Made by a program: the position numbers and the translations under genes. 32,000 nucleotides of DNA. It comes from Telmatocola sphagniphila (GTDB lineage: Bacteria; Planctomycetota; Planctomycetia; Gemmatales; Gemmataceae). Where the stretch lies: NCBI RefSeq assembly GCF_018398935.1, contig NZ_CP074694.1, positions 5,640,001 through 5,672,000 on the forward strand, in the 5' to 3' direction. The notes below the pieces were generated by a model. It did not search any database, was not told the origin of the DNA, and saw only the letters and a program-made list of their open reading frames with translations. Shown here piece after piece: positions 4,389 through 29,713 of the stretch. The first letter of the stretch is position 1. The number at the start of each line of letters is the position of its first letter.

Positions 4389-4403
4389 GGCTTAGCTCCG
4401 GTC

Positions 4404-5735: not shown

Positions 5736-5877
5736 AGAAGCTCCTTCGCTGCCATCCAGAATCTTGATTTACTAATGGAGATTCCAACTATTTTCGAATA
5801 TCCATCCGTCTCCTGATCTTCCGAACAAAAGATGGAAATAGCATTTCACCTAAATGCGCCGACAACTCCTTCGCACA

Positions 5878-8280: not shown

Positions 8281-8860
8281 GAACTTCTCACAAGGAGATT
8301 GGTTCGGCGAGGTAGGAGGGAGTATCGTCAATTAGTCTAACGGTGAAGTCGAATTAATACTAGTAAATTGATGGCAAACTTTGATCGTGATATTTCATCG
8401 ATTGATTCGGTCGATCGATCGGTTCCGGTGGTTCTCTTCATTGGAAATTGAATCGAAGCTTGAAGAGCGCACAAGCAAGCACCGAAAAAACCCAGCCTCG
8501 GGTAGTGAAGTCATAGCATTTCTGGGCTGGCGGAGCAAGCGGTGCTTCACTCAAGAAAAACAAGAATAGAAGCCAATCACCCAATTTTTGGGCAGCTTGG
8601 CTATCGAGCCCTTTCTGATCGGGTCTCGTTTTCAAGAGTAACTCATTAGACCGAGTTCTTTCAGTCAACAATTCCGGGACTTTAGGGCTTGCTGCCACTA
8701 CTCCTTTTGCCTGGACTGAAGTTAAAGAATCTTTAGTAGTTTTAGGCCTGCATTGCCGATTCGATTTGATCGCGATAAGTTGTCCTTCTGCTTACTGCCG
8801 TTCTTTCCGCTTTTGAAACTGCATTCACGGAGCGCGTTCGTCGAGTTTGACACGTTCTCC

Positions 8861-11800
8861 ATGAGGCGGGCCATGAAATTCAAATCTGTAGTTTCGTTCG
8901 GTGTTACGATGTTGTTTTGCTTGTTGCTAAATGCGACAGGTCAGGCAGCGAATTTCTCCGATTCCGAGGACAATTTTTTTGAAAAAGACATCCGTCCTCT
9001 TCTAGTTGAAAAATGCGTGGGCTGCCACGGCGACTCTAAATCCAAAGGTGGACTTACTCTGAACTCGAGGGCGGCCGTCCTTCGCGGTGGAGATTCAGGT
9101 TCGGCCATTGTTCCCGGCCAACCCGACAAGAGTCTACTGATTAAAGCCGTTCGGTATCAAGGCGACCTCCAGATGCCTCCGAAAGGTAAGCTAACCAACA
9201 AGCAGATTGAACTTCTCGAAAAATGGGTGAAACTGGGTGCCCGCTGGCCTGGCGTGGATTCGACACCCGTTCCGGGCAGCCATTTTACCATTACGGAAAA
9301 ACAACGGCAGTTCTGGTCTTTTCAGACGGTAAAGTTTCCACCATTACCCGCGTTCCGAGATTCAAGTTGGGCCAAGTCGGAAATTGACCGATTGATCCTG
9401 ACGGGACTGCGTGCGAAGAATCTTGCCCCGGCCGCGCCAGCCGACAAGCGCACTCTCCTTCGCCGGGCGACTTTCGACCTGATCGGCCTTCCTCCGAAGC
9501 CAGAGGAAATCGAAGCATTTCTGAAGGATGATTCGCCCGAGGCTTTCGCGAAAGTCGTGGATCGTCTGCTGGCTTCGCCCCACTACGGCGAACGCTGGGG
9601 CCGCCACTGGCTGGATGTCGTCCGCTATGCCGATGCGCGGGATTTGATTCAATTGCCGAAAGAGAGCGACTTCCGGGAAGCCTGGCGCTATCGGGACTGG
9701 GTAGTCGACTCGTTCAATCGAGATATGCCTTATACGGACTTCGTTCGTTCGCAAATCGCTGGCGACCTCCAGCCTTCGACTCGTCCCGATCGCTTCAACA
9801 AGGAAGGCCTGGTTGCAACCGGGATGTTGGCCATTGCGGATTTCGTTCCCGGCGATGTCGATAAGAATCAAATGATCGCGGACTACGTCAATGACCAGAT
9901 CGATGTGGTCGGCCGGGCATTTTTAGGGCTCTCGATCTCCTGCGCCCGCTGTCACGATCATAAATTCGATCCGATTTCTACCGAAGACTACTACGCGCTG
10001 GCCGGTATTTTTTTCAGCACTCGAATTATCCCTGGCCCCGTTCCCGGGAATACTCCACTCGTCAAAGTTCCATTACTTTCGCCGAATGAGATCGAACAGT
10101 TGAAATTGCGAGCCGCCGCGGACGAGACGCGCCGAAAAGAACTCGAACGGTCGCTTTCCGATGCGTCCACGAGCGAGTACCGCAACTACTTGCGAACGCT
10201 GCTCGACGAACAGTCGGCCCGATACATTCTGGCTGCACACGATTGTCGCACTCTGGACAAGCCGTCAGCCGTTGTTGTGGCGAATCGGCTTGGCCTTCAC
10301 AACGGATTGTTGGCGGAGTGGATCGCTTTTTTAGCTCGAGTTGAGAAACATCCTGAGGCAGGCTACCCGGCCCTGCTTCGCGAAATCGCTGCCGATAAAC
10401 TCTCGGACCCTGCATTGGTGCGCGCCGCCTTGGAAGTTCAAAATGCTCTTTCCGGATCCGTTCAGCGCGACCGGGATCAAGCTGGCCGCGCACCTGAAAA
10501 ATACGCTCTGGATCATTCCTTACTGTTTCAATTTCGCGCGGACGATCCCCGAATCGCATTCGACGAGGTCAAGCGAATCGCTTTCTGGCCGAACTTCTCC
10601 GGCTTTTGGCTAAACGCTTCTCCGCCGGTTCCAAAGAACTCCCCGGAGACTGCGTACGCTAAGATCGGTCAACATCAAAAACCAGTCATCCGATTCCAGG
10701 GTCAGTCGGTGTTGGCAGTCGAGCGTCCAGTTCCTCCGATGGGGTCTCTTTTCATCGTCTTCCGGCCATCGCCGGAATCTCGAGCCGGTGAGCGAATCGT
10801 TGGTTGGGAAGATGCCGACAGCGGCCAGCATGGGCTAGGTTTGATGACTGACTCGAAAGGTCGGCTCCACGCAATCCTCCGTAAGAATGGGCTATCGGGC
10901 GATTTAGTGGATAACCATGCGTGGAATGGCTTCGAAACTGTCTGCATTAGCTGGGGACCGGGCGGTACGACTATGCGCCGCAACGCAGTCGATGTTTCTT
11001 CGAAAACGATTGATGGAATTTCCTCGGATCCGAAAATCACGGCTTTGGCGATTGGCGGGCCCGGCTCCGGAAACGGCCCGCGCTTCACCGGGGATATTGC
11101 GGAATTGCGCGTTTACGACCGACCTCTCAGTGATTCGGAACGACTACTGGTCGATGACGAGCTCCATAAAACGTGGTTCGAAGCCGACGGCCCTAGAGTG
11201 CCTAAGCGGGATGCATTCGATGAGTTGGTCGTGGAAATGCTCTCCACGCGAGGGGCATTTTGGCCGCCCGTGGAAGAACGAATTAAACTTCTGCCTGCAG
11301 AAGTGCAAAAGCGGTTTGAAACGACGAGTCGCGAGTTAAATCTTCTGCGAAATAAACCTGCTGTGGAAGTTCCCATGGCAGTCGCCGTACAGGACGGCGG
11401 CCCTAAAGGGACGCGTCACGAAGGCTTTAAAGACGCTACCGTATTCCTTCGCGGCGATTCGAAACGACTTGGTAAAACGATACCTCGCGGCTTCCCGAAA
11501 GTACTAGCGGGAAACCAAACAGAAAAAATCATCGAAGGGAGTGGTCGACTCCAACTTGCCGACTGGCTGACCCACTCCACAAACCCGCTCACGTCCCGAG
11601 TGATGGTCAACCGTATTTGGCAGCACCACTTCGGTGAAGGTCTGGTCCGCACACCAAACGATTTCGGTGAACGGGGCGAACGGCCGACGAACCCCGAGTT
11701 GCTGGATTATCTCGCTACAAAGTTCATCGAATCGAAGTGGTCTGCGAAAACCATGCACCGGCTTATTATGCTTTCGGCGGTCTACCAGCAAAGCTGCACT

Positions 11801-12349
11801 AACAGCCCCGACGCGATGTCCCGCGATCCGGAAAACCGGTTGTTCGGACGTATGAACCGTCAGCGACTGGAAGCCGAAGCCATCCGCGACAGCCTGCTGG
11901 CGGTAAGCGGACGCCTGGATTCAACGCTGGGCGGAGCGCCCTTCTCCGATCTGGCCATTCCTCGCCGCACACTTTACTTGATGTCGTCCCGGACGGCAGC
12001 GAATACCTCCGATTTCGGACGACTTTTCGATGCTGCCGATCCTAGCATGATTGTGGCCCAGCGTGGCCAGTCGGTTGTCGCCCCGCAGGCGCTTTTTTTT
12101 CTGAACGATCCCTTCGTCCGAGGAGTTGCAAAAGATTTGGCGGCCAGGATCCGGAAAGAAACACCCGAAGACCCCGAGGCCCGCATCGAACATCTTTATT
12201 CCCTGACCTTGGGTCGCAAGCCCGCGAAAGTGGAGATTGAATTCGGGAAAAAACTGCTCCTTCCATCTACTCACCATGACAGTCCCGACCCGTTAGAGCG
12301 CTACTGCCTGCTGATTTTAAGTTCGAATGAATTCCTTTTCATGGATTGA
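8861..12349 (+). CDS. Planctomycete cytochrome-c domain / DUF1549 / LamG-like / DUF1553 protein
   Basis: The tracked ORF starts at a TTG (8753). The ATG at 8861 (or 8873) gives [29 protein letters not shown], a clean signal peptide. CxxCH heme motif CVGCH at 9014-9028, DUF1549 ([23 protein letters not shown]), [11 protein letters not shown], a LamG-type segment ([19 protein letters not shown]) and DUF1553 ([29 protein letters not shown]). Confidence 0.9.
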   Translation: [1162 protein letters not shown]

Positions 12350-12394
12350 TATGAGCTACTGGGGATTAAAACCGATTCAGAACCGAGAGGGGAT

Positions 12395-13795
12395 ATGAAC
12401 AAAAACTCTAATGTTGCGAGGCAGCCGAATCGCCGCGAGATGCTGCAACGCGTCGGTGCTGGGTTCGGTTCGCTCGCACTGTCGGCCTTACTGGCCGAGG
12501 AAGCGCATGGGGCGGATTCGGCCGACCCCCTCGCTGTTCGCAAGCCGCATTTCCAAGCGCGGGCTAAACGGGTGATCTTCCTCTTTATGCCGGGCGGTCC
12601 GTCGCAAGTAGACACCTTCGATCCCAAGCCGGAACTGACGAAATTCAACGGCAAATCATCGCCTAAACTTTACCTCGGTCAGAAGCGAAACCTGCTGGCG
12701 TCCCCGTGGAAATTCCGGAAACATGGCCAATCGGGCCTCGAAGTGAGCGAACTCTTTCCGTGCGTCGCGAAGCAGGTCGACCGACTTTGCATTCTGCGCG
12801 GAATGGTCGCCGACGATGTCAATCATCCCGGCGGATGCCTGCAGATGAACACCGGGGAGCGAGTCGCCACTCGTCCCAGTCTCGGTTCCTGGGTGACCTA
12901 TGGCCTCGGCACCGAAAATCAAAATTTGCCCGGTTTCATCGCCATCGGTCCCGGTCCGCTCATCGAGGGAAACCGCCAGTATGGTGCGGCTTTTCTTCCC
13001 GCGGCCCATCAGGGAACATTCGTATCGGATATGAAGAACCCGATCCGAAATCTGAAGAATAATCAAGTATCTCCAGAGCGTCAACGACTGGAGCTTGACG
13101 CCCTGCGCCGACTGAACGAATTTCATAGGATCGATCGTTCCGAAGACAGCCGTCTCGCAGCACGCATCGAATCCTTCGAACTCGCGTATCGGATGCAGAC
13201 CCAGGCGCCCGACGCTTTTGACCTCACGAAGGAAACCGACAAAGTGCAATCGCTTTATGGCGTCGACCGCAAGGAGACCGAGACGTTCGGTCGCCAGTGC
13301 CTGTTGGCGCGACGACTCGTTGAAAGGGGTGTGCGGTTCGTGCAGCTCTACCATACGAGTGGAGGATTTCAACCCTGGGACCAGCATAGCGACTTGAAAG
13401 GAGGTCACGAGAAAAACGCCCTGGCGACGGATCGGCCGATCGCCGGCCTGTTGGAAGATCTCCAAGCGCGTGGACTTTTAGAAGACACTCTCGTGATCTG
13501 GGGCGGTGAATTTGGCCGCACGCCGGCCGCCGAAGGGAAGGACGGAAGAGACCACCATCCCTATGGGTTCACCATGTGGCTGGCCGGAGGTGGTGTGCGC
13601 GGCGGCCTGGCACACGGAGAAACCGACGAATTTGGATGGGATGCAGTACAAGATCGCGTGCATATTCATGACCTTCACGCGACAATCTTGCATCTATTGG
13701 GACTCGATCACGAAAAGCTGACCTACCGCCACGCCGGACGAGACTATCGACTCACGGACGTCAGCGGCGTCGTCGCGAAAGCGATTCTAGCTTGA
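12395..13795 (+). CDS. DUF1501 family protein, Tat-signal bearing
   Basis: 466 aa, starting 45 nt after the PSD gene. Twin-arginine motif NRREMLQRVGAGFGSLALSA, then VIFLFMPGGPSQVDTFDPKP and WGGEFGRTP...GRDHHP. It is a paralog of the 4404-5735 product. Confidence 0.9.
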   Translation: MNKNSNVARQPNRREMLQRVGAGFGSLALSALLAEEAHGADSADPLAVRKPHFQARAKRVIFLFMPGGPSQVDTFDPKPELTKFNGKSSPKLYLGQKRNLLASPWKFRKHGQSGLEVSELFPCVAKQVDRLCILRGMVADDVNHPGGCLQMNTGERVATRPSLGSWVTYGLGTENQNLPGFIAIGPGPLIEGNRQYGAAFLPAAHQGTFVSDMKNPIRNLKNNQVSPERQRLELDALRRLNEFHRIDRSEDSRLAARIESFELAYRMQTQAPDAFDLTKETDKVQSLYGVDRKETETFGRQCLLARRLVERGVRFVQLYHTSGGFQPWDQHSDLKGGHEKNALATDRPIAGLLEDLQARGLLEDTLVIWGGEFGRTPAAEGKDGRDHHPYGFTMWLAGGGVRGGLAHGETDEFGWDAVQDRVHIHDLHATILHLLGLDHEKLTYRHAGRDYRLTDVSGVVAKAILA

Positions 13796-14373: not shown

Positions 14374-15825
14374 ATGATCCCTCTCGACGACGCCTATGTG
14401 GATGCTGCCGCCCCGAATGCCGAAGCGATCAAAAATGGTCGCAGTCTGGTTCTCAAAAACAAGTTTATCGCATTTCATATCTCTGAAGATCAATCGATCC
14501 TCTTCGGAGAGTGCCAGGGGAGCGGTAAAGAGCCTTACCGTTGCTCGTGCGATTTCATCCGCGAAGATAAACCGACCCATCGCTGTTCCTGTCCCAGCCG
14601 GCAGTTCCCCTGCAAGCACTGTCTAGGGCTGATGTACGCCTACGTGCAGAAGAAAAGCTTTAAAACCGCTGCCGTACCTGAAGATTTGCAGGCTAAACGA
14701 GAGAAATCCCAGGCTCGGGTAGAGAAGAAGCAAACCGAGGTGGAGAAACCGAAGCAGGTGAACCTGGGAGCACTTGCCAAGAAAATCAAAGCTCAGTTGG
14801 CGGGCATCGACATTCTGGAAAGATTAACGGCCGATCTTATCCGAGTAGGTATCGGCAACATGAATGCCAAGCTGGCTTCTTCCATGGAGGAGCAAGCCAA
14901 GCAGCTGGGCAATGCCTATCTGCCAGGAGCTCAGTCCGCCCTGCATGCCTACACTAAATTATTCGCAGGTGAAGAGGGCACCTTCACCGACCAGCCCAGC
15001 CAGGCCCGAGAAAAAATCTACAGTGAAGCCTTGGATCACCTTAGCCGACTGCACACTCTGGCCAAACAAGGCCGTGCGTACTTGCAGCGTCGATTAGAAG
15101 ATTCCGAACTGAAACCGGAAATCGATACCGCCATAGCTGCCTGGCTCGGCCATGCCTGGCAGCTCAGCGAATTAAAAGAGGCGGGACTGGTGGAGGTCGA
15201 TGCCGAGCTGGTTCAACTCGGCTTTAACACCCACGATGATGTCGCCCGAAAGGAATACATCGACACGGGTGTTTGGATGACGCTGAGTAATGGTCGGATT
15301 CGCATAACCCAAAATTTCCGACCCTATAAGGCTTTGAAGCATATCAAGAGCGACGATAGTTTCTTTCAAGTCGCGCAAGTACCACAACTCTACATATATC
15401 CGGGAAACGTCAATCCCCGCGTTCGCTGGGAAGGCATGGTTCCGAGGCCATTGACCCCCCAGGATCTCGAAGCGGTCCGAAAGCATGGGCACTCCGATTT
15501 CTCGGCCGTGATCAAGGAAGTGAAAGGCCATCTCAAGGGGCCATTAGCGGATAAACAACCGATTTATGCTTTGAATTTCAAGCATCTAGGCCGAGTGGGC
15601 GAAACCCTGGTCGTCGAGGACGTTACGGGAAATCGGCTCGTCTTGACCGATACGGGAATAAGCGAAGAACCGCCGAGTTGCCATCTCCTGTTGCTGCTAC
15701 CGGCCGACCTATTTCAAGGGAATACGCTTATTGCCCGCTTCCGTCATGATCTGGATACTCGTAAACTCCAGATCAAACCGCTCAGTCTGGTTAGTCGAAC
15801 ATCCATTATTCGCTTAACTCTCTGA
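14374..15825 (+). CDS. SWIM zinc-finger domain protein (YehQ-like), first gene of the five-gene operon
   Basis: 483 aa. SWIM signature CxCx6CxH = CSCPSRQFPCKH at 14584-14619, within YRCSCDFIREDKPTHRCSCPSRQFPCKHCLGLMYAY. A K/E-rich linker and a roughly 330-aa C-terminal domain of unknown function follow. Confidence 0.85.
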   Translation: MIPLDDAYVDAAAPNAEAIKNGRSLVLKNKFIAFHISEDQSILFGECQGSGKEPYRCSCDFIREDKPTHRCSCPSRQFPCKHCLGLMYAYVQKKSFKTAAVPEDLQAKREKSQARVEKKQTEVEKPKQVNLGALAKKIKAQLAGIDILERLTADLIRVGIGNMNAKLASSMEEQAKQLGNAYLPGAQSALHAYTKLFAGEEGTFTDQPSQAREKIYSEALDHLSRLHTLAKQGRAYLQRRLEDSELKPEIDTAIAAWLGHAWQLSELKEAGLVEVDAELVQLGFNTHDDVARKEYIDTGVWMTLSNGRIRITQNFRPYKALKHIKSDDSFFQVAQVPQLYIYPGNVNPRVRWEGMVPRPLTPQDLEAVRKHGHSDFSAVIKEVKGHLKGPLADKQPIYALNFKHLGRVGETLVVEDVTGNRLVLTDTGISEEPPSCHLLLLLPADLFQGNTLIARFRHDLDTRKLQIKPLSLVSRTSIIRLTL

Positions 15826-15868: not shown

Positions 15869-17659
15869 ATGAGCATCGCACTACTCACTCAGGTCTACGA
15901 CGAAACCCGCCGACTGGCGATTGCCGGCAGCGTGGTCGCGCCGGGGGATTTTCGACTCAAGAAGTTGATTACTCCGCTGGATCAAGCAGGTGCCAAAGCC
16001 CCTGTCTTCAGCAAGGTGGCCGAGGGGGTGAAAGCGGTTGTCGATTCGAATGATAAGACTTCCGCACAAGCTCTACTCGATCTCGCCACCCTCGTTAATG
16101 CCATTCTTTACACTCAGGGCGAAACTGGAATCGTCAGCCCTCTGGAACGGATCGAAACGACCGACCTGGGATTGCAAGTGACGCAAACCAGCGCGCGGGT
16201 GCTGAAACCCTTGATCGAAGCCTTGACCACAACCGGCTCCGGTCGATTAGAGATGATCAAGGAGGCATTCGCACAAAATGCGTTTCGCGATTTGCGACTG
16301 ATTCAACCTTCCGTCGTTGCCATCGATGATGTGTTTGCCGAACTAGCAGAGTTTGTCGCAGAAAAAATTCTTCCTCTTTATGGCAAAGCAATCCTCCCCT
16401 CGCTGAAAAGCACTTTTAACCTGAAGGGCAAAACGGGACATGGCCGACGTTTGAAATTGATGCATGCTCTCGATCCTGCCAATACACGGGAGCTCGTTAA
16501 ACAGGCTCTGGAGGAAGGTTCTAAAGAAGTTCGAGTCGCAGCCATCGAATGTCTGGGAGCCGAACCAGACGACATCGCTTATTTACTGGAACAAGCGAAC
16601 GCGAAAGCTTCAGAAGTTCGATTCGCTGCCTACTCAGCTTTGGCCGGAATAGATAATGATGCGGTACTGCCCTCATTACAAAAAGCAATTGAAGGTAAAG
16701 ATCTCTCGCAGGCGGTTTTGTCGCTGAAAAACTGCCTCAATGCCAAATTCCTGCACTACCTCTTGGGTCGAATCGAAGAATCGGTGACGGAGTTACGCAA
16801 GGAAAAAGACAAGAAAAAGATCAGCCAGAGTATTGATCGACTGCTCTATCTGCTCTATTGCCTGGAAGAGCGCCAGGATGCCCAGAGCGAAGAGTTACTA
16901 CTCAAGCTTTTCGCCGATAGAGACAAACTGCTAACTATTCGAGGCGAGACAACTTCCGGCCGGGACTTGAATAAGCGTGTTGTTTCCGTCCTCGCGCGAG
17001 GGACTCCCCATGCGCGGGAAACGCTCATCGAGAATCACGAATCATTGGACCTCGAGGATCTGAAAACCTGTTTCCAGGTCGCTCTGGAGGAATTGCCCCC
17101 CGAGAAAGTCTTCGAGATGTTTTCCCCCTACGCTTTGGGCAAAGGCGATCCCAAGAAGAAGAATCCGAAGCTGGAGAAAGTGTCGGGCGTCTTAGAAAAA
17201 CTAGCCATCCTGGATCAGCTATATTTTGGCACTAGGAAACTTCTAAACTCTGAGGCAAAAATTTCGCTCGATCCTCGTTGGCTGGATGTTGCCGTCCAGG
17301 CAAAGAAATCCAGTCTTGTCAGCCAACTAGCAAGACCTGGACATGCTGCAGCGAACGCGTTTCTGTTTGAAAGTTTTCAAAAAGCTTTAGAGAAATCGAC
17401 GTATTCTAGCGAATGTCCTCAAATTGTGGAAGGCATGGCCCGCGCTCAACATCCCGAGGCCACGGATGCCCTGATCACGATGCTCGAAAAACTTGGGGAC
17501 AAATTTAGCTATTACTACTTCTACCATTTGGAAGATATCGTCTCCCGACTCCCCACATCGGCAGTGCCCAAGCTCGAAGCCCTGGTTCCCAAATTACCCG
17601 AACGGCTGGCGGATAACTTACTGATGAGCCTGCAAAAGCTGCGTGAAAAAGCTGACTAG
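15869..17659 (+). CDS. HEAT/ARM-like repeat protein, function unknown
   Basis: 596 aa, all-helical-looking composition. HEAT-type repeats include SKEVRVAAIECLGAEPDD, SEVRFAAYSALAGIDNDAVLPSLQKAI and HPEATDALITMLEKLGD. It starts 43 nt after the SWIM gene and ends 44 nt before the ATPase gene. Confidence 0.7.
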   Translation: MSIALLTQVYDETRRLAIAGSVVAPGDFRLKKLITPLDQAGAKAPVFSKVAEGVKAVVDSNDKTSAQALLDLATLVNAILYTQGETGIVSPLERIETTDLGLQVTQTSARVLKPLIEALTTTGSGRLEMIKEAFAQNAFRDLRLIQPSVVAIDDVFAELAEFVAEKILPLYGKAILPSLKSTFNLKGKTGHGRRLKLMHALDPANTRELVKQALEEGSKEVRVAAIECLGAEPDDIAYLLEQANAKASEVRFAAYSALAGIDNDAVLPSLQKAIEGKDLSQAVLSLKNCLNAKFLHYLLGRIEESVTELRKEKDKKKISQSIDRLLYLLYCLEERQDAQSEELLLKLFADRDKLLTIRGETTSGRDLNKRVVSVLARGTPHARETLIENHESLDLEDLKTCFQVALEELPPEKVFEMFSPYALGKGDPKKKNPKLEKVSGVLEKLAILDQLYFGTRKLLNSEAKISLDPRWLDVAVQAKKSSLVSQLARPGHAAANAFLFESFQKALEKSTYSSECPQIVEGMARAQHPEATDALITMLEKLGDKFSYYYFYHLEDIVSRLPTSAVPKLEALVPKLPERLADNLLMSLQKLREKAD

Positions 17660-17703: not shown

Positions 17704-18828
17704 ATGGCAAAGAAAAAGGCGGAAGAAGCGACCTCATCCAATTCTGGCTCGCAGATGCTGCGGGCTCCCGCAGAGATTCTCTACGCTACCGAGCTTGAAC
17801 AACTGGCCAAAGAGGATAAATTCGAACGTCCGCCCGGCTGGCGTTTGTCCGCTCGCGCCGTGCTGACCTATATCTGCGGCGGTAAATCGGGCTCGATGGA
17901 GATTACGCCCAAATACATCGGCAATAAACGCATTGTCGAAATCGCCATCTCCACACTAGTGACCGATCGATCGCTTTTACTTTTGGGCGAACCGGGAACT
18001 GCCAAATCCTGGCTTTCCGAACATCTCGCAGCTGCCATCAATGGCGATTCAACCAAGGTGGTGCAAGGCACCGCCGGTACGACCGAAGAACAGATTCGTT
18101 ATTCGTGGAACTATGCGATGCTGATCGCCAAGGGCCCCAGCCACGACGCCTTGATTAAAAGTCCCATCTTTCGTGCGATGGAATCAGGCACCATCGCCCG
18201 CTTTGAAGAAATCACCCGCTGTGCTGCCGAAGTTCAGGATGCTTTGATTTCCCTGCTTTCTGAAAAGCGCCTCTCATTGCCTGAATTGGCGACGGAAGTT
18301 CCTGCGAATAAAGGCTTCTCGATCATCGCCACGGCCAATACTCGCGATCGCGGCGTTAACGACATGTCTGCGGCCTTGAAACGACGCTTCAACATGATCG
18401 TGCTTCCCAGCCCCTCAAATCTGGAAACCGAGATTCAGATCGTCCGTAAGCGAGTTCAGGAACTCGCCGTCAGTCTAGAGCTGAAAGCGAACATCCCGAC
18501 CGAAGACGCCGTGGCTCAAGTGGTCACCATCTTCCGCGAACTTCGAACGGGTCAAACGCTCGACGGCAAGAATAAGCTGAAAGTGCCTTCGGGGGTACTA
18601 TCCACAGCCGAGGCCATCTCCGTTCTGGCTAACGGCATGGCTCTCGCGGGTAACTTCGGAAATGGAGAAGTCTCCGCTCACGATCTGGCGGCCGGTCTTC
18701 AAGGGGCCGTCGTAAAGGATGAGGAAAAAGATAAGGTCATCTGGCAGGAATATCTTTCGAATGTCGTGAAAAAACGTGGCTCCGAATGGTTGCCGCTGTT
18801 CACCTCTTGCTCGGAGCACAATTCGTGA
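17704..18828 (+). CDS. MoxR-type AAA+ ATPase (AAA_5-like, YehL-like)
   Basis: 374 aa with GAGG upstream of the ATG. Walker A LLLLGEPGTAKS (GEPGTAKS at 17986-18009). Walker B region IARFEE at 18193-18210, followed by ITRCAAEVQDALISLLSEKRL and FSIIATANTRD...ALKRRF. This is collinear with the MoxR core (DEINRA...vqsaLLeamqE...ViATqNP...DRF). Confidence 0.88.
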   Translation: MAKKKAEEATSSNSGSQMLRAPAEILYATELEQLAKEDKFERPPGWRLSARAVLTYICGGKSGSMEITPKYIGNKRIVEIAISTLVTDRSLLLLGEPGTAKSWLSEHLAAAINGDSTKVVQGTAGTTEEQIRYSWNYAMLIAKGPSHDALIKSPIFRAMESGTIARFEEITRCAAEVQDALISLLSEKRLSLPELATEVPANKGFSIIATANTRDRGVNDMSAALKRRFNMIVLPSPSNLETEIQIVRKRVQELAVSLELKANIPTEDAVAQVVTIFRELRTGQTLDGKNKLKVPSGVLSTAEAISVLANGMALAGNFGNGEVSAHDLAAGLQGAVVKDEEKDKVIWQEYLSNVVKKRGSEWLPLFTSCSEHNS

Positions 18829-21164
18829 GTTCCTGGCGTATCCCCGTCTTCGGCGTTCGCCATCTCTCCCCCTCCGGAGCGTGGCACCTGCGTCGATTTC
18901 TCGACAAAGTTCGGCCGAAGGTCGTACTTATTGAGGGATTGGACGATGCCGGGCCGCTCGTCAGCGACATCACTCTGCGCAATACCAAGCCTCCCATAGC
19001 CATTCTTGCGTACACCGATTCGCAGCCGGTGCGAACCCTGGTTTACCCGATGGCCCGTTACAGCCCGGAGTATCAGGCTCTGCAATGGGCTAAAGAGAAT
19101 AAAGCGACAGTCGAGTTCATCGATCTTCCCTCCGACATTTTTCTCGGCCTGCAAGACATCGAGTCGGAGCGTAATGAGCAGTTCCGCAAGAAAAGAGAGG
19201 AAGCAGAACCAGAGAGTACGGAGAAAGAGGAAGAAAATTCGCAGAGCCGCTGGCGACCCGAACGAGGGGAATCCATTTATCAACGCATCGCGGCCCGCTG
19301 TGGCGAACCCGATTACGATACCTACTGGGAACGCCGGTTCGAGCACAATCTCCAGGACGACAGCTACCGACTGGCGGCGTTTGAATTGGGTAAGGCCCTT
19401 CGCGACGAAGAAGATCCCCCGATCTGGCGAGCGGAAAATCTGGTTCGCGAAAGCTATATGCGACGGCGCATCGAGGAGGTGATTTCCAAAGGAGTGAAAG
19501 CCGAGCAGATTGTGGCCGTGGTCGGAGCGTTCCACGCATCGGTGCTCAACGGCGATTATCCGGCCATGACCGATGAAGAACTGTCCCGCTTGCGCCGACG
19601 CTCGAGCAAGCTCACACTGATGCCCTATTCGTATTACAAACTCTCCACGCAATCGGGCTATGGGGCCGGCAATCATGCCCCGGCCTATTTTGAGTTACTT
19701 TGGGACAGTCTCCAACGCCGGGAACTTCAGGAACTGCCTGGCGAATATCTCTCCCAAGTTGCCCGGCATCTGCGCGAACGGGGAACTCATCGATCGACGG
19801 CGGAAGTCATTGAAGGTGTGCGGCTGGCCAGAACGCTGGCGGCATTGCAAGAGGGTTCCGCAACAACGCTCCGAGATTTACGCGATGCGGCGGTGACCCT
19901 CATCGGTCATGGTGAAGCCCTTGTCGTGCGGGAGGCTTTGGCCGATATCGATATCGGCTCGGCCATCGGCGAATTACCCGAAGGCGTGAGCCAGACCTCG
20001 ATTCAGGAAGATTTCGCCCGGGAACTCTCCCGCTTGAAACTGGAGAAATATCGCACATCCACCGTTCAGGATCTCAAACTCGATTTGCGTGAAAATCGTC
20101 GAGTCCACAGCGAAGAAGCGGCCTTTCTCGACCTGAATCGCTCATCGTTTTTCCACCGACTTCTAATGCTCGGCATTCAATTCGCCACTCCGGTTTTGCT
20201 TCGACAGCAATCGACGACCTGGGCCGAGCATTGGCAGTTGAAGTGGACACCGGAATCCGAAATTGCGCTGGTAGAAGCCGTCTTACTCGGCGAGACCGTC
20301 GAACTGGCAACTGGCTTTCAATTCAAAACTCTCCTGGAAAACTGCAAAAACATCGGAGAAGCGAGTGATCTGGTGACGAAAGCCTGCCAGTGCGGGCTGA
20401 TGGCCTCCATGGAACTGGCTCGGCAACGCCTACAGGAACTTGCGGCCACCAGTACCGATATGAAGGTTATTGCCCACGCGACTTTCCAACTGAGCCAGGT
20501 GATTCGCTACGGGGATGTTCGCCGGTTCGATCCGGCCCCACTCCTTCCCCTGATGGAACAATTATTTGTCTCCGGTAGCCTCGCCTTACATTCGGCGGCC
20601 AATTGCAACGATGATGCCGCCAAGGAAATTGTTGTGGCCATCGAGGAGTTGAATCGAGTGAGCCTGGAACATCACGACCTTGTCGATGAGGCTCTCTGGC
20701 TGGAACAACTGCGGAGGCTATCCGATGCCGATGATCGCAACCCGCTTCTCTCGGGATTTGCCTGCGCGACTCTTCTGGAACGGAATCTGATTGAGAACGC
20801 AGAGTTGGTACGCGAGGTGTCGCGCAGGCTCTCCCCCGGTGTGCCCGCGGATCTCGGAGCCGGCTGGTTCGAAGGGCTCGCCAAGCGCAATCGGCATTCC
20901 TTGCTGGCCCGCCAATCACTTTGGGAAGCCCTGGATAGCTATATTGCTTCACTTGATCCGGATCAGTTCAAGCGAGCCCTGGTGTTCCTGCGTCGAGCGT
21001 TTGGCGCATTCAGTCCTCGTGAAAAACGGCAGATCTGTGAGAATCTCGCCCATTTCTGGGGTGTCGATGAAGAGAAAACCTTCGATGCCGTCGCCAAACC
21101 GCTGAGTGAAGAAGAAGAGAAGACCCTCAAGGACCTTAACGAACTCGATTTTGGGGATTTCTAA
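18825..21164 (+). CDS. DUF5682-like large protein (YehM-like) with an N-terminal TraB/PrgY/Tiki-like domain
   Basis: The frame is open from the ATG at 18786, but an in-frame GTG at 18825 overlaps the ATPase stop (GTGA). That start gives (M)SSWRIPVFGVRHLSPSGAWHLRRFL, the N-terminus I recall for this family. The rest is an about 530-aa helical region ending in the acidic tail SEEEEKTLKDLNELDFGDF. Confidence 0.75.
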   Translation: MSSWRIPVFGVRHLSPSGAWHLRRFLDKVRPKVVLIEGLDDAGPLVSDITLRNTKPPIAILAYTDSQPVRTLVYPMARYSPEYQALQWAKENKATVEFIDLPSDIFLGLQDIESERNEQFRKKREEAEPESTEKEEENSQSRWRPERGESIYQRIAARCGEPDYDTYWERRFEHNLQDDSYRLAAFELGKALRDEEDPPIWRAENLVRESYMRRRIEEVISKGVKAEQIVAVVGAFHASVLNGDYPAMTDEELSRLRRRSSKLTLMPYSYYKLSTQSGYGAGNHAPAYFELLWDSLQRRELQELPGEYLSQVARHLRERGTHRSTAEVIEGVRLARTLAALQEGSATTLRDLRDAAVTLIGHGEALVVREALADIDIGSAIGELPEGVSQTSIQEDFARELSRLKLEKYRTSTVQDLKLDLRENRRVHSEEAAFLDLNRSSFFHRLLMLGIQFATPVLLRQQSTTWAEHWQLKWTPESEIALVEAVLLGETVELATGFQFKTLLENCKNIGEASDLVTKACQCGLMASMELARQRLQELAATSTDMKVIAHATFQLSQVIRYGDVRRFDPAPLLPLMEQLFVSGSLALHSAANCNDDAAKEIVVAIEELNRVSLEHHDLVDEALWLEQLRRLSDADDRNPLLSGFACATLLERNLIENAELVREVSRRLSPGVPADLGAGWFEGLAKRNRHSLLARQSLWEALDSYIASLDPDQFKRALVFLRRAFGAFSPREKRQICENLAHFWGVDEEKTFDAVAKPLSEEEEKTLKDLNELDFGDF

Positions 21165-21169
21165 CCACC

Positions 21170-22399
21170 ATGTCTCTTGAAAATCTTCAGCGCTGGCGGC
21201 TCATACTCGGCAAGTCTTCCGAGGATTCCCTCCGTTCGAGCGCTGGACGAATGGGTCATTCAGGCGGCCTTCTGAGCGGCGATATGGCCGACATCGATGA
21301 TGCCCTCGACGTCGTTTATGCCGAAGACGACGGGATCGACCTCACCCGGGAAGAATGGGAGAACGACTCCGGTTCCAAGCGCGGGGCGGTCAAGGGAAGA
21401 ACCTATCCCAAGGTGGCGCGCTGGCTGGGGGAAGTGCGTCGGTTGTTCCCCACGGATATTGTGACTCTGGTACAGAAAGACGCGATCGAACGCAAGGGCC
21501 TGAAACAACTTCTGTTCGAGCCGGAAATGCTGGCCCAGGTCGAACCATCGGTCGACCTGGCTTCCATGGTACTCTCCCTCAAAAATCTGGTGCCGGAAAA
21601 GGCCAAAGCTGCCGCCCGCGATCTCGTCCGACGAGTGGTGGAAGATCTGCGAAAAAGGCTGGAATCGCGAATGCAGCAGGCCGTGCGCGGCGCGCTCAAC
21701 CGCAATCAGCACAGCCCCTTTCGCAGCCTGGCCAATCTGGACTGGCAGAGGGTGATTCGTCAGAATCTCAAAAACTATAATCCCGAGTTGCAAGCATTAA
21801 TCCCAGAGCATTTTTCGTTTTTCAGCCGTCAACAGAAGCGCAATGAATGGAATGTCATCATCGCCATGGATCAATCGGGCTCCATGGCTTCTTCGCTGAT
21901 CTACGGCGGCGTCATGGGAGCGATTCTGGCGAGTATGCTGGCTGTGGAAACGCATGTGGTCGCATTCAATCACGAGGATGTCGTCGACCTGACGGCCGAG
22001 ATGCACGATCCAGTGGACCTGCTTTTTGGCATACAACTGGGCGGGGCCGAGGATTACTGGAAAGCGACCTGCTACTGCGAACAGTTCATGCATACTCCGG
22101 CAAAAACGCTCTATATACTCTTGGCCGACCTGTATGATACCAGCCCGAATCAGCCGAAGTTTGAAAAAAGGATAGAACAGTTAATCGAAGGCGGGTTAAA
22201 GGCTGTCACGCTGCTGGCGATCAGCGATCAAGGGAAGCCCTCTTATAATCACGAGTTAGCCAAGAAATTGACGAACCTTGGCATGCCCTGCTTCGGCTGC
22301 TCTCCCGATCGGCTACCGGATTTGTTAGCCGCCGTGCTTAAAGGACAGGATTTGAACGTATTCGCCAGCCAGGCTGAATCGTCTCAGTCTCCGCGCTGA
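21170..22399 (+). CDS. VWA (von Willebrand factor A) domain protein with an intact MIDAS start motif (YehP/CoxE-like)
   Basis: 409 aa, starting 5 nt after the previous stop. N-terminal LQRWRLILGKSS. MIDAS DxSxS = DQSGS at 21869-21883, within NVIIAMDQSGSMASS. Later LYILLADLYDTS matches the distal VWA motif. Confidence 0.85.
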   Translation: MSLENLQRWRLILGKSSEDSLRSSAGRMGHSGGLLSGDMADIDDALDVVYAEDDGIDLTREEWENDSGSKRGAVKGRTYPKVARWLGEVRRLFPTDIVTLVQKDAIERKGLKQLLFEPEMLAQVEPSVDLASMVLSLKNLVPEKAKAAARDLVRRVVEDLRKRLESRMQQAVRGALNRNQHSPFRSLANLDWQRVIRQNLKNYNPELQALIPEHFSFFSRQQKRNEWNVIIAMDQSGSMASSLIYGGVMGAILASMLAVETHVVAFNHEDVVDLTAEMHDPVDLLFGIQLGGAEDYWKATCYCEQFMHTPAKTLYILLADLYDTSPNQPKFEKRIEQLIEGGLKAVTLLAISDQGKPSYNHELAKKLTNLGMPCFGCSPDRLPDLLAAVLKGQDLNVFASQAESSQSPR

Positions 22400-24099: not shown

Positions 24100-24507
24100 C
24101 CGAGTTACCCAACCAAAACTACGAGAATACGATTCGGGGCGGAGTCGCGTTAGGGCTTCTCCAGAATTAACAAGTTACATCAAAGCCTGCGATCCCTATC
24201 TTTAACTATACGGTAACCTTCACTGCTCTGGATAGTTCGTCGATTCAGCAAAGCAGCGTATCAGGAGATCTTGGCCCTGTAGGCTCCCGATCAAAGTTCG
24301 GAGCTATCATAGATTCCGATTCGTCGAAGACATCCATCACGTTCGCCGATCCGTCTTTGACAAGGTGTCTCGATCCGTAGCCTGCAATGGTTCCTTCGTT
24401 CCATCGCGATGCCCAGATATGACTTAAAGGAGATTATTCGGTTGCAAAAAATCGGCGAATTCGGAGACGCTCAGGTTCAAAATAGTCAACACCACGAGGA
24501 GAATGTC

Positions 24508-26544
24508 ATGAACGTTTTGAGGTTCAGTATTGTGTGGATCCTGAGCTTGAGCTTCTTGCTCGGAGCGATCCACGCAGACGAGCCGACGAGACCGGAAGCC
24601 GACCCAGCGATAGTGCTGATTGATCGACTTGTGCAGGTGGATCAGCAAGATACTGGCTATTCCGGCAGTACATCTGGTACGGCGTTCCTTCCCCTTGGGC
24701 GGAACGAATCCCATACTATGCTGCTGGGTCAGCGGCCCCGGGTTCAATCCGACGCTATGCGATCGTTGGTGAAACTCGGCGTCAAAGCCATCCCATCGCT
24801 GCTCGACCACCTCTCCGACGACCGACGTACCAAGATTGTGATCGAACACGCCGGCTTTTTCGGCGGTTTCTTTCTCACCCAGGATCAGGGAGAAAAGGCC
24901 GAGGAGAAATTTGGTGAAGGGTTCAGTGCCGGCAAACGCTATTGTGTGCGTGTAGGGGATCTTTGTTACGTCGCACTCGGGCAGATCGTCAACCGTGGAT
25001 ATTTTGCCGTCCGCTATCAACCAACAGCCATCATTTACGCCACCTCCGTGCCGCATTGCAAGCAACTCCGTGCCGATCTGCTCAAGGAGTGGAAGGGACT
25101 ATCAGCCGAGACACACCGCAATTCGCTAGCCAAAGATCTGGAATCAGATTCCGAGTACGTCCGAGTCGGAGCTTCAGTTCGATTGGCGTATTATTACCCA
25201 GTGGAGTTCGAGACGCTCGCTATCAAACAGCTCGGACGCCCTACGTACGATGTGTTCGCGGTGGAGAAACTGGTCCGAGATGAACTCTACCCGGCCAAGT
25301 CGGCAAAGGATCGAAAAACGCTCGTGGATGAATTTGTCAAGAAGCACGGCGAGAGCGCTCTCGAAGGCATTCGCTGGAATCTGTTTGAGGATCTGGACTC
25401 CCTGGAGGCCGACGAAGAAGGGAGGAGAAGTCCAAAACTCGACCCCAAGTACAAAACCCGTGAGTGCCTGATGGATGTGTTTGGTCTACCCGCCAATGTC
25501 AAGAGTCAAGATCGGCCAAAGACCCAACCGCTCTCCTACACCACCCAAGCCCGGTTCGTCCAAACTTTGCTGTACGATCCTGGGGAAAAGCTCGATCAAG
25601 CCGTTCGCGACCTGCTGGCGAAGACCGAGGATGATTACATGGCCGAGGGTTGCCTTGACCGGCTGGTAGGTCGTGGATACGACGCTGCTATTGAAGAGTA
25701 CCTAAGACGCCGTCTACCGAAAGTGAAGGAGCGAAATCGAGAAGAACTCAAGAAGTACGAAGCAAAGCTCGGTTGGACCCGACTCCACGTCGCAGTAGAA
25801 CTGAACGTACCCGAATTCATTGAGACCGCGTTAATGGGCAAGATCGACGTGAACGCCCGCAGCAAGGATGGCCGGACGGCGTTGCATCTGGCCGCGGCAG
25901 CAGGTAATGGCGAAGCGGTCGAATTGCTTCTGAAATCGAAAGCCAACCCCAACTCGAAAGATGGTATCGGCCGGTTGGCGGTGCAACTGGCAAGCGCCGC
26001 CGATCATCCCGAAGTCGTCCGGAAACTGGTCGCGAGCAAAAGCGAGGTGCCAGACGTGCTGACCGCTGCGACTGTCGGAGATGCGACCCGCCTCGGCGAT
26101 CTGCTCAGAGGCAAGAGTCACCTGGTGAAGGAACGAAACGAATCGGGCTACACGCCGCTGCATATAGCGGCCCGCGAAGGTCACGACGAGTCAATCCGCG
26201 TACTGCTCCAGGCGGGGGCCGATGTTAATGTATTAGCCGTTGAGACGAACAATTATGAATCAGCGTATGGGTGGACTCCGCTCCATCTAGCCGTAATGAA
26301 CGGCAAAGCTAGTACTGTAAAACTGCTCCTTGAAAAGGGAGCCAACGTAAACGCCGCCGACAAGGGCGGAAAGCTGACCCCATTGCATTATGCTGCGTGG
26401 GCCGGAGACGCCGAACTGGTGAAGATATTACTAGCTGGTAAAGCCGATCGGGGAGCGAAAGACACTCGAGGCCGTATGCCACTCAACTTAGCGACGGAAC
26501 GGAAACACACGATGGTGGTCAAGTTGCTCAAGGAATCGAACTGA
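24508..26544 (+). CDS. Secreted protein with an N-terminal unknown/HEAT-like region and a C-terminal ankyrin-repeat array
   Basis: The tracked ORF starts at 24409. The ATG at 24508 is preceded by AGGAG and starts a signal peptide MNVLRFSIVWILSLSFLLGAIHA. The C-terminal ~270 aa hold several ANK repeats (DGRTALHLAAAAGNGEAVELLLKSKANPN, SGYTPLHIAAREGHDESIRVLLQAGADVN, GWTPLHLAVMNGKASTVKLLLEKGANVN, LTPLHYAAWAGDAELVKILLAGKAD). Confidence 0.85.
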   Translation: MNVLRFSIVWILSLSFLLGAIHADEPTRPEADPAIVLIDRLVQVDQQDTGYSGSTSGTAFLPLGRNESHTMLLGQRPRVQSDAMRSLVKLGVKAIPSLLDHLSDDRRTKIVIEHAGFFGGFFLTQDQGEKAEEKFGEGFSAGKRYCVRVGDLCYVALGQIVNRGYFAVRYQPTAIIYATSVPHCKQLRADLLKEWKGLSAETHRNSLAKDLESDSEYVRVGASVRLAYYYPVEFETLAIKQLGRPTYDVFAVEKLVRDELYPAKSAKDRKTLVDEFVKKHGESALEGIRWNLFEDLDSLEADEEGRRSPKLDPKYKTRECLMDVFGLPANVKSQDRPKTQPLSYTTQARFVQTLLYDPGEKLDQAVRDLLAKTEDDYMAEGCLDRLVGRGYDAAIEEYLRRRLPKVKERNREELKKYEAKLGWTRLHVAVELNVPEFIETALMGKIDVNARSKDGRTALHLAAAAGNGEAVELLLKSKANPNSKDGIGRLAVQLASAADHPEVVRKLVASKSEVPDVLTAATVGDATRLGDLLRGKSHLVKERNESGYTPLHIAAREGHDESIRVLLQAGADVNVLAVETNNYESAYGWTPLHLAVMNGKASTVKLLLEKGANVNAADKGGKLTPLHYAAWAGDAELVKILLAGKADRGAKDTRGRMPLNLATERKHTMVVKLLKESN

Positions 26545-28566: not shown

Positions 28567-29697
28567 ATGAAAACCCTCGTTCCCGACTGCGCGGCGCTCC
28601 AGGCCCATTTCGCCTTGCTGCGCTCAGAACTGGCTTCTGGCCTGATCGAACGCGACGAAGAGATCGATCTCTGCCTCACCGCTCTGATCGCCCAAGAGCA
28701 TCTGCTCTTGGTCTCGCCGCCCGGCTGTGCCAAGTCCCTACTGCTCGATTCCCTGTTGAAGGCCACCGGCGGCTCCAAGTTCTCGATCCTTTTAACCAAG
28801 TTCACCGTCCCCGAAGAAGTCTTCGGTCCGATCTCGATTCAAGGGCTCAAGGAAGACCGCTTCCAGCGGATCACCACCGGTAAACTGCCCGAAGCCGACT
28901 TCGCCTTCATCGATGAAGTCTTCAAGGCTTCCTCGGCGATCTTGAATACTCTTCTGAAGATCCTCAACGAACGGACCTTCGATGCCGGCGAAGGTTCTTT
29001 GCGCAAGGTTCCCCTGAAGCTCTGCGTGGCCGCTTCCAACGAATGGCCGGCCCCGGAGAGTACCCAGGAACTGGCCGCCCTGTTCGATCGCTTTACTCTG
29101 CGCAAGAGTCTCTCCCCGATTCGCTCGCAGTCGGGTCGGAAGAAATTGCTCTGGAATCGGGATCATACCCCGAAGATCTCGGTGCACTTGAAACCGACCG
29201 ATCTTGAAGCCGCCCGTCGTTATGCGCGGGAACTGGAATGGTCGATTCCAGCTCAGGAAGCCTTCGAGGCCATTCTCAAAGACCTGACCAAGGAAGGCAT
29301 TCAGCCGGGAGATCGCCGCCAGTTCAAAGCGGTCGGCATCGTGCAGGCGTACGCCTTCCTGCAAGGGGCCGAGCAGGTCGAACCGGAGCATCTGGAGGTG
29401 GCCGCCCACGTGCTCTGGGACGATCCCAAGGAACAACCGGCTAAAGTGGCTCAGGTCATTGCCCGGATTGCCAACCCGATCGGTATGCGGCTCAATCAGC
29501 TGCTGTTGGAAGTGGAACAGGTTCTGTCCACAACCGATGTTCGCAAGCTGCCCGAGACCGCCAAGGCCGCGGCCAAGCTCGGCGAGATCGACAAGCAGCT
29601 GAGTGAATTGAAGTCCAATGACCGGGTCACCCGAACCCGGAACTACGTTCGCGAACAGCTCCGACAACTCAAACTCGCCTCGCTGGAGGCGATCTAA
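28567..29697 (+). CDS. ravA: RavA-like MoxR-family AAA+ ATPase, short form without a LARA domain
   Basis: 376 aa with AGGAG upstream. It is collinear with my recollection of E. coli RavA. [36 protein letters not shown] matches [96 protein letters not shown] matches [81 protein letters not shown] matches [20 protein letters not shown]. Walker A at 28714-28737. Confidence 0.85.
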   Translation: [376 protein letters not shown]

Positions 29698-29713
29698 CCC
29701 CTAGGAAAAAACC

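Follow-up and report, generated by a model that had tools for sequence, protein, structure and literature searches.

In characterised enzymes of the TIKI superfamily, a His-Glu pair from a set of two histidines and two glutamates (2His/2Glu), carried by a parallel β-sheet core, is proposed to activate water for the hydrolysis of ester or peptide bonds (PMC6254334). These enzymes include Tiki1 and Tiki2 (Wnt metalloproteases), the Ras/Rap1 endopeptidase RRSP, the erythromycin esterases EreA and EreB, and Bcr135 and Bcr136, and they act on extracellular or host proteins or on macrolides. The need for a metal differs among the members, RRSP and the erythromycin esterases (EreB) being metal-independent, and PMT, a member without the catalytic motif, is inactive (PMC6254334). 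The TraB/PrgY/GumN family (PF01963), placed in the same superfamily, includes Escherichia coli YbaP, Enterococcus PrgY and TraB, Xanthomonas GumN, Tetrahymena COXTT5 and human TRABD. MoxR ATPases act via an adaptor with a von Willebrand factor A (VWA) domain, whose metal ion-dependent adhesion site (MIDAS) engages a partner that is then remodelled or helped in metal insertion (PMC7159879, PMC3893208). Here, we analysed a stretch of 32,000 nucleotides (nt) from Telmatocola sphagniphila (Planctomycetota, Gemmataceae; contig NZ_CP074694.1, positions 5,640,001 to 5,672,000), hereafter the window, in whose numbering all positions are given. It encodes, between a MoxR ATPase and a VWA protein, the hypothetical protein KIH39_22615, which is a homologue of E. 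coli YehM and whose N-terminal domain is quite probably a divergent relative of TIKI and TraB proteins.

KIH39_22615 is 100% identical to the translation of the open reading frame (ORF) at 18825-21164 on the plus strand (779 aa). The GTG at 18825 was taken as the start codon because homologues and the NCBI annotation begin there, and the upstream ATG at 18786 was rejected for the same reason. An antisense ORF of 325 aa (18699-19676) was dismissed as a mechanical reading frame within a well-supported gene. The protein clearly belongs to Pfam DUF5682 (PF18934), scoring 488.6 bits against a cut-off of 26 over aa 35-757 of the 792-aa ORF that opens at the ATG. E. coli K-12 YehM (b2120, 759 aa) is likewise a DUF5682 protein (E = 2.4e-98), and the two align over their full length with 24% identity (E = 2e-29), YehM keeping the stretches GIRHH, LIEGP, FSPEWQAL, FIDLP, REAFM and CGGWHAP. 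KIH39_22615 is thus the full-length planctomycete homologue of E. coli YehM. A search with the DUF5682 N-terminal domain (residues 1-300) gathered 2,071 clusters at 50% identity (E ≤ 0.001) among 1.84 billion representatives. In E. coli, 5333 of 5426 complete genomes (98%) carry yehM, as a single chromosomal copy mostly at 95-99% identity. One E. coli sequence, NZ_CP137737.1, has a yehM interrupted by an IS5 insertion (1867916-1871259).

The gene is the fourth in a five-gene cassette on the plus strand, in the order SWIM, HEAT/DUF5691, MoxR, DUF5682 and VWA_CoxE. With E. coli YehL the MoxR protein shares 41% identity (E = 2e-84), and with YehP the VWA protein shares 32% (E = 3e-65), so that a MoxR ATPase close to YehL is encoded together with YehM- and YehP-like proteins, as is characteristic of a YehL-subfamily system. 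According to a classification quoted in PMC3893208, YehL is one of seven MoxR subfamilies, and the literature search returned no client for it. The same five-gene order was found in Granulosicoccus (Gammaproteobacteria), Blastopirellula (Planctomycetota) and, with an insertion, Roseibacillus (Verrucomicrobiota); the SWIM gene occupies the same position in all three, and DUF5691 is called at the position of the second gene in other phyla. The TGA stop codon of the MoxR gene and the GTG start codon of the DUF5682 gene share the tetranucleotide GTGA (18825-18828), which suggests translational coupling of the two genes. In Blastopirellula these two genes share 8 nt, as do yehM and yehP in E. coli. 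Like E. coli yehLMPQ, the cassette encodes YehL-, YehM- and YehP-like proteins and a SWIM protein. The gene order differs: in Telmatocola the SWIM and HEAT/DUF5691 genes come first, whereas in E. coli yehQ (SWIM) comes last and yehI (DUF4132) lies upstream. The SWIM proteins of the two organisms can be aligned in the zinc finger only. No membrane segment or signal peptide was predicted in any of the five cassette proteins, and KIH39_22615 is predicted to be soluble and cytoplasmic.

The initial annotation had proposed that the DUF5682 protein begins with a domain of the TraB/Tiki type, recognisable from two GxxH motifs and a glutamate at the end of a strand. Translation of 18825-19560 reproduces all of the protein sequence quoted in support, and both motifs, G-V-R-H and G-A-F-H, lie exactly at the positions given (Table 1). 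Conservation was assessed in 53 full-length DUF5682 proteins that are 27-56% identical to the query and in a wider set of 80 diverse members. In the 53 proteins both histidines (H13, H237) and the glutamate (E37) proved invariant. The motifs are retained far more strictly than by chance. Altogether 17 columns are invariant, 13 of them within the first 237 residues (R12, H13, P31, E37, P57, P75, E82, D100, E173, R208, M212, G234 and H237), and the C-terminal 480 residues are much less constrained. Because these columns are invariant, both histidines, the strand-end glutamate and further acidic and basic residues must be under strict constraint. G10 of the first motif is glycine in 75% of the 80 members and mostly proline in the remainder.

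To this conservation corresponds a confidently predicted fold. An AlphaFold2 model of residues 1-300, built from a 41-sequence alignment that spans two clades, has a predicted local distance difference test score (pLDDT) of 88.2 and a predicted template modelling score (pTM) of 0.88, and strands and helices alternate in it. Strand β1 (8-11) runs into G-V-R-H and is followed by helix 16-29, strand β2 (33-39, with E37) and helix 40-49. Next come a hairpin (58-63 and 72-76), helix 81-91, which starts from S-P-E82, and strand β5 (95-100), which ends in D100. A long helix with a disordered loop then leads to four helices, the last of which carries R208, to strand β6 (229-234) with G-A-F-H behind it, and to strand β7 (262-267). 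Three features of the TIKI/TraB layout can be located in this order: a first GxxH directly behind the first core strand (G10-V-R-H13), a glutamate ending the second strand (E37), and a second GxxH at the end of a strand (G234-A-F-H237) with a helix bearing a conserved arginine (R208) ahead of it. The end first assigned to the domain, 19560, is too early, since the domain reaches approximately residue 297 (19715). The charged insert said to split it is real, but it is a variable loop between the D100 strand and the later helices: it measures 6-63 aa (median 33.5) in the 80 homologues, contains 21% Asp or Glu, cannot be aligned across clades, and probably lies outside the conserved core.

Comparison with Pfam connects this domain to TIKI-type families. 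The N-terminal domain of KIH39_22615 matches TraB_PrgY_gumN with E = 0.057-0.076, aa 191-238 aligning to profile positions 200-244, which cover the R-E-x-x-M helix and G-A-F-H. When 41 DUF5682 N-terminal domains were scanned singly, nine matched TraB_PrgY_gumN (best E = 2.6e-4), three ChaN/Cofac_haem_bdg, which is labelled 'Tiki superfamily' (best E = 0.015), and one DUF5694. The only other recurring matches were OrfA (four domains, best E = 0.049) and Sel_put (three, best E = 0.22), and no biologically plausible Pfam family other than the TIKI type appears to recur in these scans. The Pfam DUF5682 model starts at about residue 17-24 in every member scanned and omits strand β1 together with the invariant G-x-R-H, which may explain why the likeness to TraB/Tiki proteins has escaped notice.

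Profile-profile alignment with hhalign extended the comparison to the whole domain. In a TraB/GumN seed alignment of seven diverse members, taken from plasmid records and E. coli YbaP, the invariant columns are G-x-x-H, the strand-end Glu, the Glu in K-P-V-x-x-L-E, the Arg in R-N-x-x-W, and G-A-x-H. A genome scan with a single TraB protein returned Sphingomonas relatives only (at least 67% identity), and the seven seeds plus the non-redundant Sphingomonas homologues made up a narrow profile of 26 sequences. Aligned with the 80-sequence profile of the DUF5682 N-terminal domain, it gave P = 1.7e-4 to 3.2e-4, and P = 5e-5 to 9e-5 with a score of 38-40 after removal of the variable insert. The reversed profile scored 16, and 150 block shuffles averaged 17.1 (standard deviation 2.7, maximum 28.9), none of them reaching the score. 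In the relaxed alignment, which runs end to end, the seven conserved TraB/GumN positions pair in order with G10/H13, E37, E82, D100, R208 and G234/H237 of DUF5682. Motif 1 falls on G-S-I-H, E37 on the invariant Glu of I-V-E, E82 on a conserved G-x-D/E, D100 on the invariant Glu of K-P-V-x-x-L-E, the R208-E209-x-x-M212 helix on R-N-x-x-W, and motif 2 on V-G-A-x-H. The R-E-x-x-M helix, D100 and E82 are positions of agreement beyond those originally claimed. Aligned as a single sequence, YbaP matched the profile over 13 residues, all around the second GxxH.

Two checks on ORFs point in the same direction. When a hidden Markov model (HMM) of the DUF5682 N-terminal domain was run unfiltered over 1420 ORFs, TraB ORFs took 17 of the top 25 places (area under the curve 0.90) and the first two ranks, with 10.3 and 10.2 bits compared with 6.9 bits for the best background ORF; the nominal p-value of this ranking overstates the case because the TraB ORFs are interrelated. 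A composite pattern (G..H, hhE, [DE], R[DEN]..[MW] and G..H within spacing windows) was found in 5 of 5 DUF5682 ORFs, in 141 of 187 TraB/GumN ORFs and in none of 1233 other ORFs (200 aa or longer). Since it was composed after both families had been seen, it describes specificity and is no blind test.

For the structural comparison with TraB/Tiki proteins that the initial annotation had called for, the model of residues 1-300 was searched with Foldseek against 350,542 PDB chains, and no match had E < 0.001. The top three matches (7w5z_E, 8b6h_DQ and 8bqs_DQ; E = 0.24-0.46, TM-score 0.25-0.35, 283-302 aligned columns) all represent one 383-384 aa subunit of Tetrahymena complex IV. The available text of the structure paper states that this complex contains 'a TraB-family protein' and gives the subunit COXTT5 (385 aa) as 'TraB family protein', the only complex IV subunit of matching length among those listed there. 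The top chain is therefore most likely COXTT5. HopBA1 (5T09), a TIKI-superfamily structure (PMC6254334), was found at rank 24. The best-ranked folds thus probably include the expected family, but with E values that are not significant.

Several observations speak against membership and have to be set beside this evidence. KIH39_22615 does not reach the PF01963 gathering threshold (13.3-13.7 bits against 26.8) and is filed at the superfamily level, not as a PF01963 member, for this reason. E. coli YehM and seven members of verrucomicrobial or gammaproteobacterial type, scanned separately, gave no TraB match, nor did two planctomycete-type members scanned alongside. The nine TraB matches reported above are not independent, since they probably come from mutually related planctomycete-type sequences. 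The profile alignment also weakens with a broad TraB profile of 81 diverse metagenomic GumN-type sequences, collected by a scan for the pattern AVGAGHLxG: P rises to about 0.02 and 12 of 100 shuffles reach the top score, the two best local alignments being the C-terminal and the N-terminal motif block. With sub-profiles built from one cluster each, P was about 0.08-0.1. The value of 5e-5 is profile-dependent and no proof, because enlarging the TraB profile weakened the alignment; the profile similarity appears real but not robust. Sequence and profile searches of the PDB chains (with the protein, the full-length profile and the N-terminal profile) returned no TIKI member, the best Foldseek match has E = 0.24, a TM-score of 0.35 and a root-mean-square deviation of 10 Å, and the identity of 7w5z_E with COXTT5 rests on length, a 7-sequence TraB profile having found no solved relative. 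Between β2 and the S-P-E helix, the DUF5682 model has a β-hairpin where TraB/GumN proteins are helical. No single test is conventionally significant.

One alternative is a separate Rossmann-like α/β fold unrelated to TraB/Tiki, in which two G-x-x-H turns and a strand-end glutamate would be of the kind common in nucleotide- and metal-binding α/β proteins. It leaves unexplained, however, why seven conserved positions follow the TraB order, why the recurring Pfam secondary families with a biological rationale all come from one superfamily, why the three best-ranked PDB chains most likely represent the only TraB-family protein with a solved structure, why the DUF5682 HMM places so many TraB ORFs among its highest ranks, and why the composite pattern is absent from 1233 unrelated ORFs. 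We regard an unrelated fold as unlikely. The assignment of residues 1-297 to the TIKI/TraB/PrgY/GumN superfamily, as a divergent member, draws on the agreement of several tests that are each weak alone, namely conservation, Pfam, profile alignment, HMM ranking and fold matches, and we consider it probable. The layout first proposed thus holds in the conservation of both GxxH motifs and the strand-end glutamate, in the in-order alignment and in the top fold matches, and is weakened by a profile result that varies with the TraB profile used.

In comparison with TraB/PrgY/GumN, which is the best Pfam secondary match of DUF5682 and most likely its best PDB fold match, KIH39_22615 has the same elements in the same order: strand-GxxH, helix, strand-Glu, acidic residues, an R-[N/E]-x-x-[W/M] helix and strand-G-A-x-H. 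It differs in its sub-threshold score, in the β-hairpin that replaces the helical insert, in the additional variable acidic loop, in its predicted cytoplasmic location, in the fusion to an α-solenoid of about 480 aa and in its MoxR-VWA operon. Furthermore, the third residue of motif 1 is an invariant arginine in DUF5682, and the glycine is sometimes proline. The most fitting classification of DUF5682 is that of a new, divergent family within a known superfamily, in a genomic and cellular setting that is new to it. Our literature search, which excluded subscription journals and database annotations, found no paper that links DUF5682 or YehM to the TIKI/TraB superfamily, none that links MoxR systems with TIKI/TraB domains and no functional study of YehM/DUF5682; the term 'DUF5682' occurs in no paper of the library searched.

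If the domain belongs to this superfamily, four strand ends and one helix would present H13, E37, E82 or D100, R208 and H237 as a set of the 2His/2Glu catalytic type like that of the TIKI enzymes, D100 and E82 being, from their alignment to conserved acidic TraB/GumN columns, the candidates for the second acidic residue. Since DUF5682 keeps the catalytic-type positions invariant across phyla, an active hydrolase is the simplest reading, and it is plausible, as judged from sequence, that the N-terminal domain cleaves peptides or esters by a His/Glu-based mechanism, perhaps with the help of a metal. Metal dependence cannot be transferred to DUF5682 because it varies among TIKI enzymes. The PDB searches detected no sequence similarity to characterised TIKI enzymes, and KIH39_22615 differs from them in being, by prediction, cytoplasmic. 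The metal, the hydrolytic activity and the gating by the MoxR/VWA pair that the initial annotation suggested are hypotheses that reach further than these observations.

The same residues could alternatively form a metal or cofactor site in a TIKI fold that is no hydrolase. KIH39_22615 would then be a client or metal handler of a maturation system like CoxD/CoxE, in which the MoxR ATPase and the CoxE-type VWA protein insert or extract a metal and gate no proteolysis. The VWA protein is indeed of the CoxE type (PF05762), and the machines for inserting metal clusters that are listed by Kaur et al. include CoxD-CoxE and MoxR systems (PMC7159879). The invariant residues, two histidines and three or four acidic ones, could plausibly build a metal site, ChaN, to which three DUF5682 members have weak matches, is a haem-binding, non-enzymatic TIKI family, and the near-universal presence of yehM in E. 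coli fits a housekeeping role. Against this, the retained positions are those with an assigned catalytic role in RRSP and the erythromycin esterases and were lost in the inactive PMT (PMC6254334), and no candidate metalloenzyme client lies beside the cassette in four loci that span phyla. A non-catalytic metal or cofactor site is in our view improbable.

On balance, we favour the reading of KIH39_22615 as a YehM homologue with a TIKI-type His/Glu hydrolase domain and a solenoid, under the control of the MoxR and VWA proteins. YehL and YehP are proposed to act on YehM because MoxR ATPases work via a VWA adaptor. By analogy with such systems, the MoxR hexamer could, via this adaptor, expose the active site of YehM or load a metal into it. 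The variable acidic loop beside the D100 strand may serve as a lid or as a ligand of the MIDAS. The solenoid probably holds partners or substrates, and target recognition would fall to it together with the SWIM and HEAT/DUF5691 proteins. The cassette resembles known MoxR-VWA machines (CoxD/CoxE, NorQ/NorD, CbbQ/CbbO, RavA/ViaA and the ternary conflict systems) in combining a MoxR ATPase, a VWA protein with a MIDAS motif and a large third protein. Unlike in these machines, the third protein combines a TIKI-like domain with a solenoid, an architecture outside the effectors and clients described in PMC7159879 and PMC3893208.

Such resemblance also raises the idea of an NTPase-gated conflict system (anti-phage or abortive), with the TIKI-like domain as a toxic protease effector released on infection: MoxR-vWA pairs have been described as threshold switches for effectors that include peptidases (Kaur et al. 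2020, PMC7159879), H-NS silences yehL and yehM, whose expression rises in hns/stpA mutants (PMC3686432), the window contains a bona fide bpMoxR-vWA pair 6 kb further downstream, and the Roseibacillus cassette is interrupted by a DUF4132 gene and a PIN toxin pair. This is very unlikely, since yehM is a core, single-copy gene of E. coli, ordinary metabolism genes flank the cassette in four loci, the PADLOC models gave only two marginal matches, both to the MoxR protein (IetA, E = 0.0014; REase_II, E = 0.009), and the cassette has no β-propeller, VMAP or iSTAND third component of the ternary conflict systems, its MoxR protein matching bpMoxR only partially (28.8 bits, profile positions 9-59 of 205).

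Beyond the N-terminal domain, the full-length AlphaFold2 model (pLDDT 88, pTM 0.78) consists almost entirely of helices over residues 300-779, and its C-terminal end is an α-solenoid. Foldseek with this model returned generic ARM/HEAT/TPR-like solenoids only, which offer no clue to the function of the C-terminal part. Ranked first among the PDB chains is human ZSWIM8 (9rwz_M, E = 0.01, probability 0.84), matched in its helical body; this is probably a generic solenoid similarity, though a curious one given the operon's own SWIM protein.

The coordinates of the cassette and of the features of KIH39_22615 are collected in Table 1.

Table 1. Genes of the MoxR-DUF5682 cassette and features of KIH39_22615, in window coordinates
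Feature	Position	Strand	Evidence
SWIM zinc-finger protein, gene 1 of cassette	14374..15825	+	PF04434 at aa 55-90
HEAT-repeat/DUF5691-like protein, gene 2 of cassette	15869..17659	+	HEAT_2 E = 1.4e-9; weak DUF5691 match
MoxR AAA+ ATPase, YehL subfamily	17704..18828	+	AAA_5 E = 2e-39
KIH39_22615, N-terminal α/β domain (aa 1-297), proposed divergent TIKI/TraB-superfamily domain	18825..19715	+	AlphaFold2 model, Pfam secondary matches, hhalign, Foldseek
Motif 1, G10-V-R12-H13, right behind strand β1 (aa 8-11)	18852..18863	+	R12 and H13 invariant; codons G10 18852-18854, H13 18861-18863
E37, C-terminal end of strand β2 (V-L-I-E-G)	18933..18935	+	Invariant in 53 and in 80 sequences
E82, S-P-E at start of helix 81-91	19068..19070	+	Invariant
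D100, end of strand β5 (F-I-D-L-P)	19122..19124	+	Invariant
Variable acidic insert (aa 103-150), long helix then disordered loop	19131..19274	+	pLDDT <50 at 137-146
R208-E209-x-x-M212, helix ahead of strand β6	19446..19460	+	R208 and M212 invariant; E209 96%
Motif 2, G234-A-F-H237, end of strand β6	19524..19535	+	G234 and H237 invariant; A235 97%; codons G234 19524-19526, H237 19533-19535
Middle helical region and C-terminal α-solenoid (aa 301-779), plus stop codon	19725..21164	+	Full-length AlphaFold2 model, Foldseek
VWA_CoxE-type von Willebrand A protein, YehP homologue	21170..22399	+	PF05762 E = 3e-33; D-x-S-x-S MIDAS motif (DQSGS)

Some further observations concern the cassette and its relatives. 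A Walker B motif usually ends in D-E; the Walker B-like stretch reads R-F-E-E-I-T-R in both the cassette MoxR protein and E. coli YehL, a deviation that possibly characterises the YehL subfamily. NCBIfam gave no match for the SWIM, DUF5682 and VWA proteins, and its matches to the HEAT and MoxR proteins are far below cut-off. A DUF4132 gene recurs beside the cassette: in E. coli, yehI (2280-5912 of locus L090) lies just upstream of yehL, and in Roseibacillus (6314-9004 of locus L091) a DUF4132 gene and a pair of PIN-domain genes are situated between the MoxR and DUF5682 genes. The Telmatocola cassette has no DUF4132 gene.

About 6 kb downstream of the cassette, the window contains a second MoxR-VWA pair (28567-31084, plus strand). 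One of its proteins (376 aa) strongly matches bpMoxR (PF20030, E = 2.3e-51), which belongs to the type 'MoxR-vWA-beta-propeller ternary systems'; the other (456 aa) matches VWA_2 weakly. Since this pair adds to the YehL-type cassette, the window carries two different MoxR systems. Between them lies the gene of a 711 aa ankyrin-repeat protein (24409-26544, plus strand; Ank_2, E = 4e-59), a class of proteins commoner in eukaryotes than in bacteria. Upstream of the cassette, at 4404-13795, there are two divergent pairs of PSCyt/PSD1 (DUF1549/DUF1553) and DUF1501 proteins, one PSCyt/PSD1 protein having a planctomycete cytochrome c domain; this arrangement resembles the usual planctomycete gene pairing. 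A PSCyt1/2-PSD1 gene is also found near the cassette in the verrucomicrobial locus L091.

DUF5682/YehM is a large and widespread family that occurs in several phyla, and the TIKI/TraB-like domain in the largest protein of the cassette offers a first testable biochemical handle on a widespread five-gene ATPase operon. Its recognition would also extend the TIKI superfamily to a cytoplasmic, solenoid-fused and AAA+-associated context. As a tentative extension of the reading favoured above, which we consider possible though doubtful, the YehM family may consist of cytoplasmic TIKI-type peptidases or esterases that are opened or metal-loaded by YehL and YehP, the substrate being chosen by the SWIM protein, the HEAT/DUF5691 protein and the solenoid. 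If this is true, the cassette would be an ATP-gated processing machine of an undescribed kind. One of the seven MoxR subfamilies would then have its first biochemical activity, and this in a system carried by 98% of E. coli genomes.

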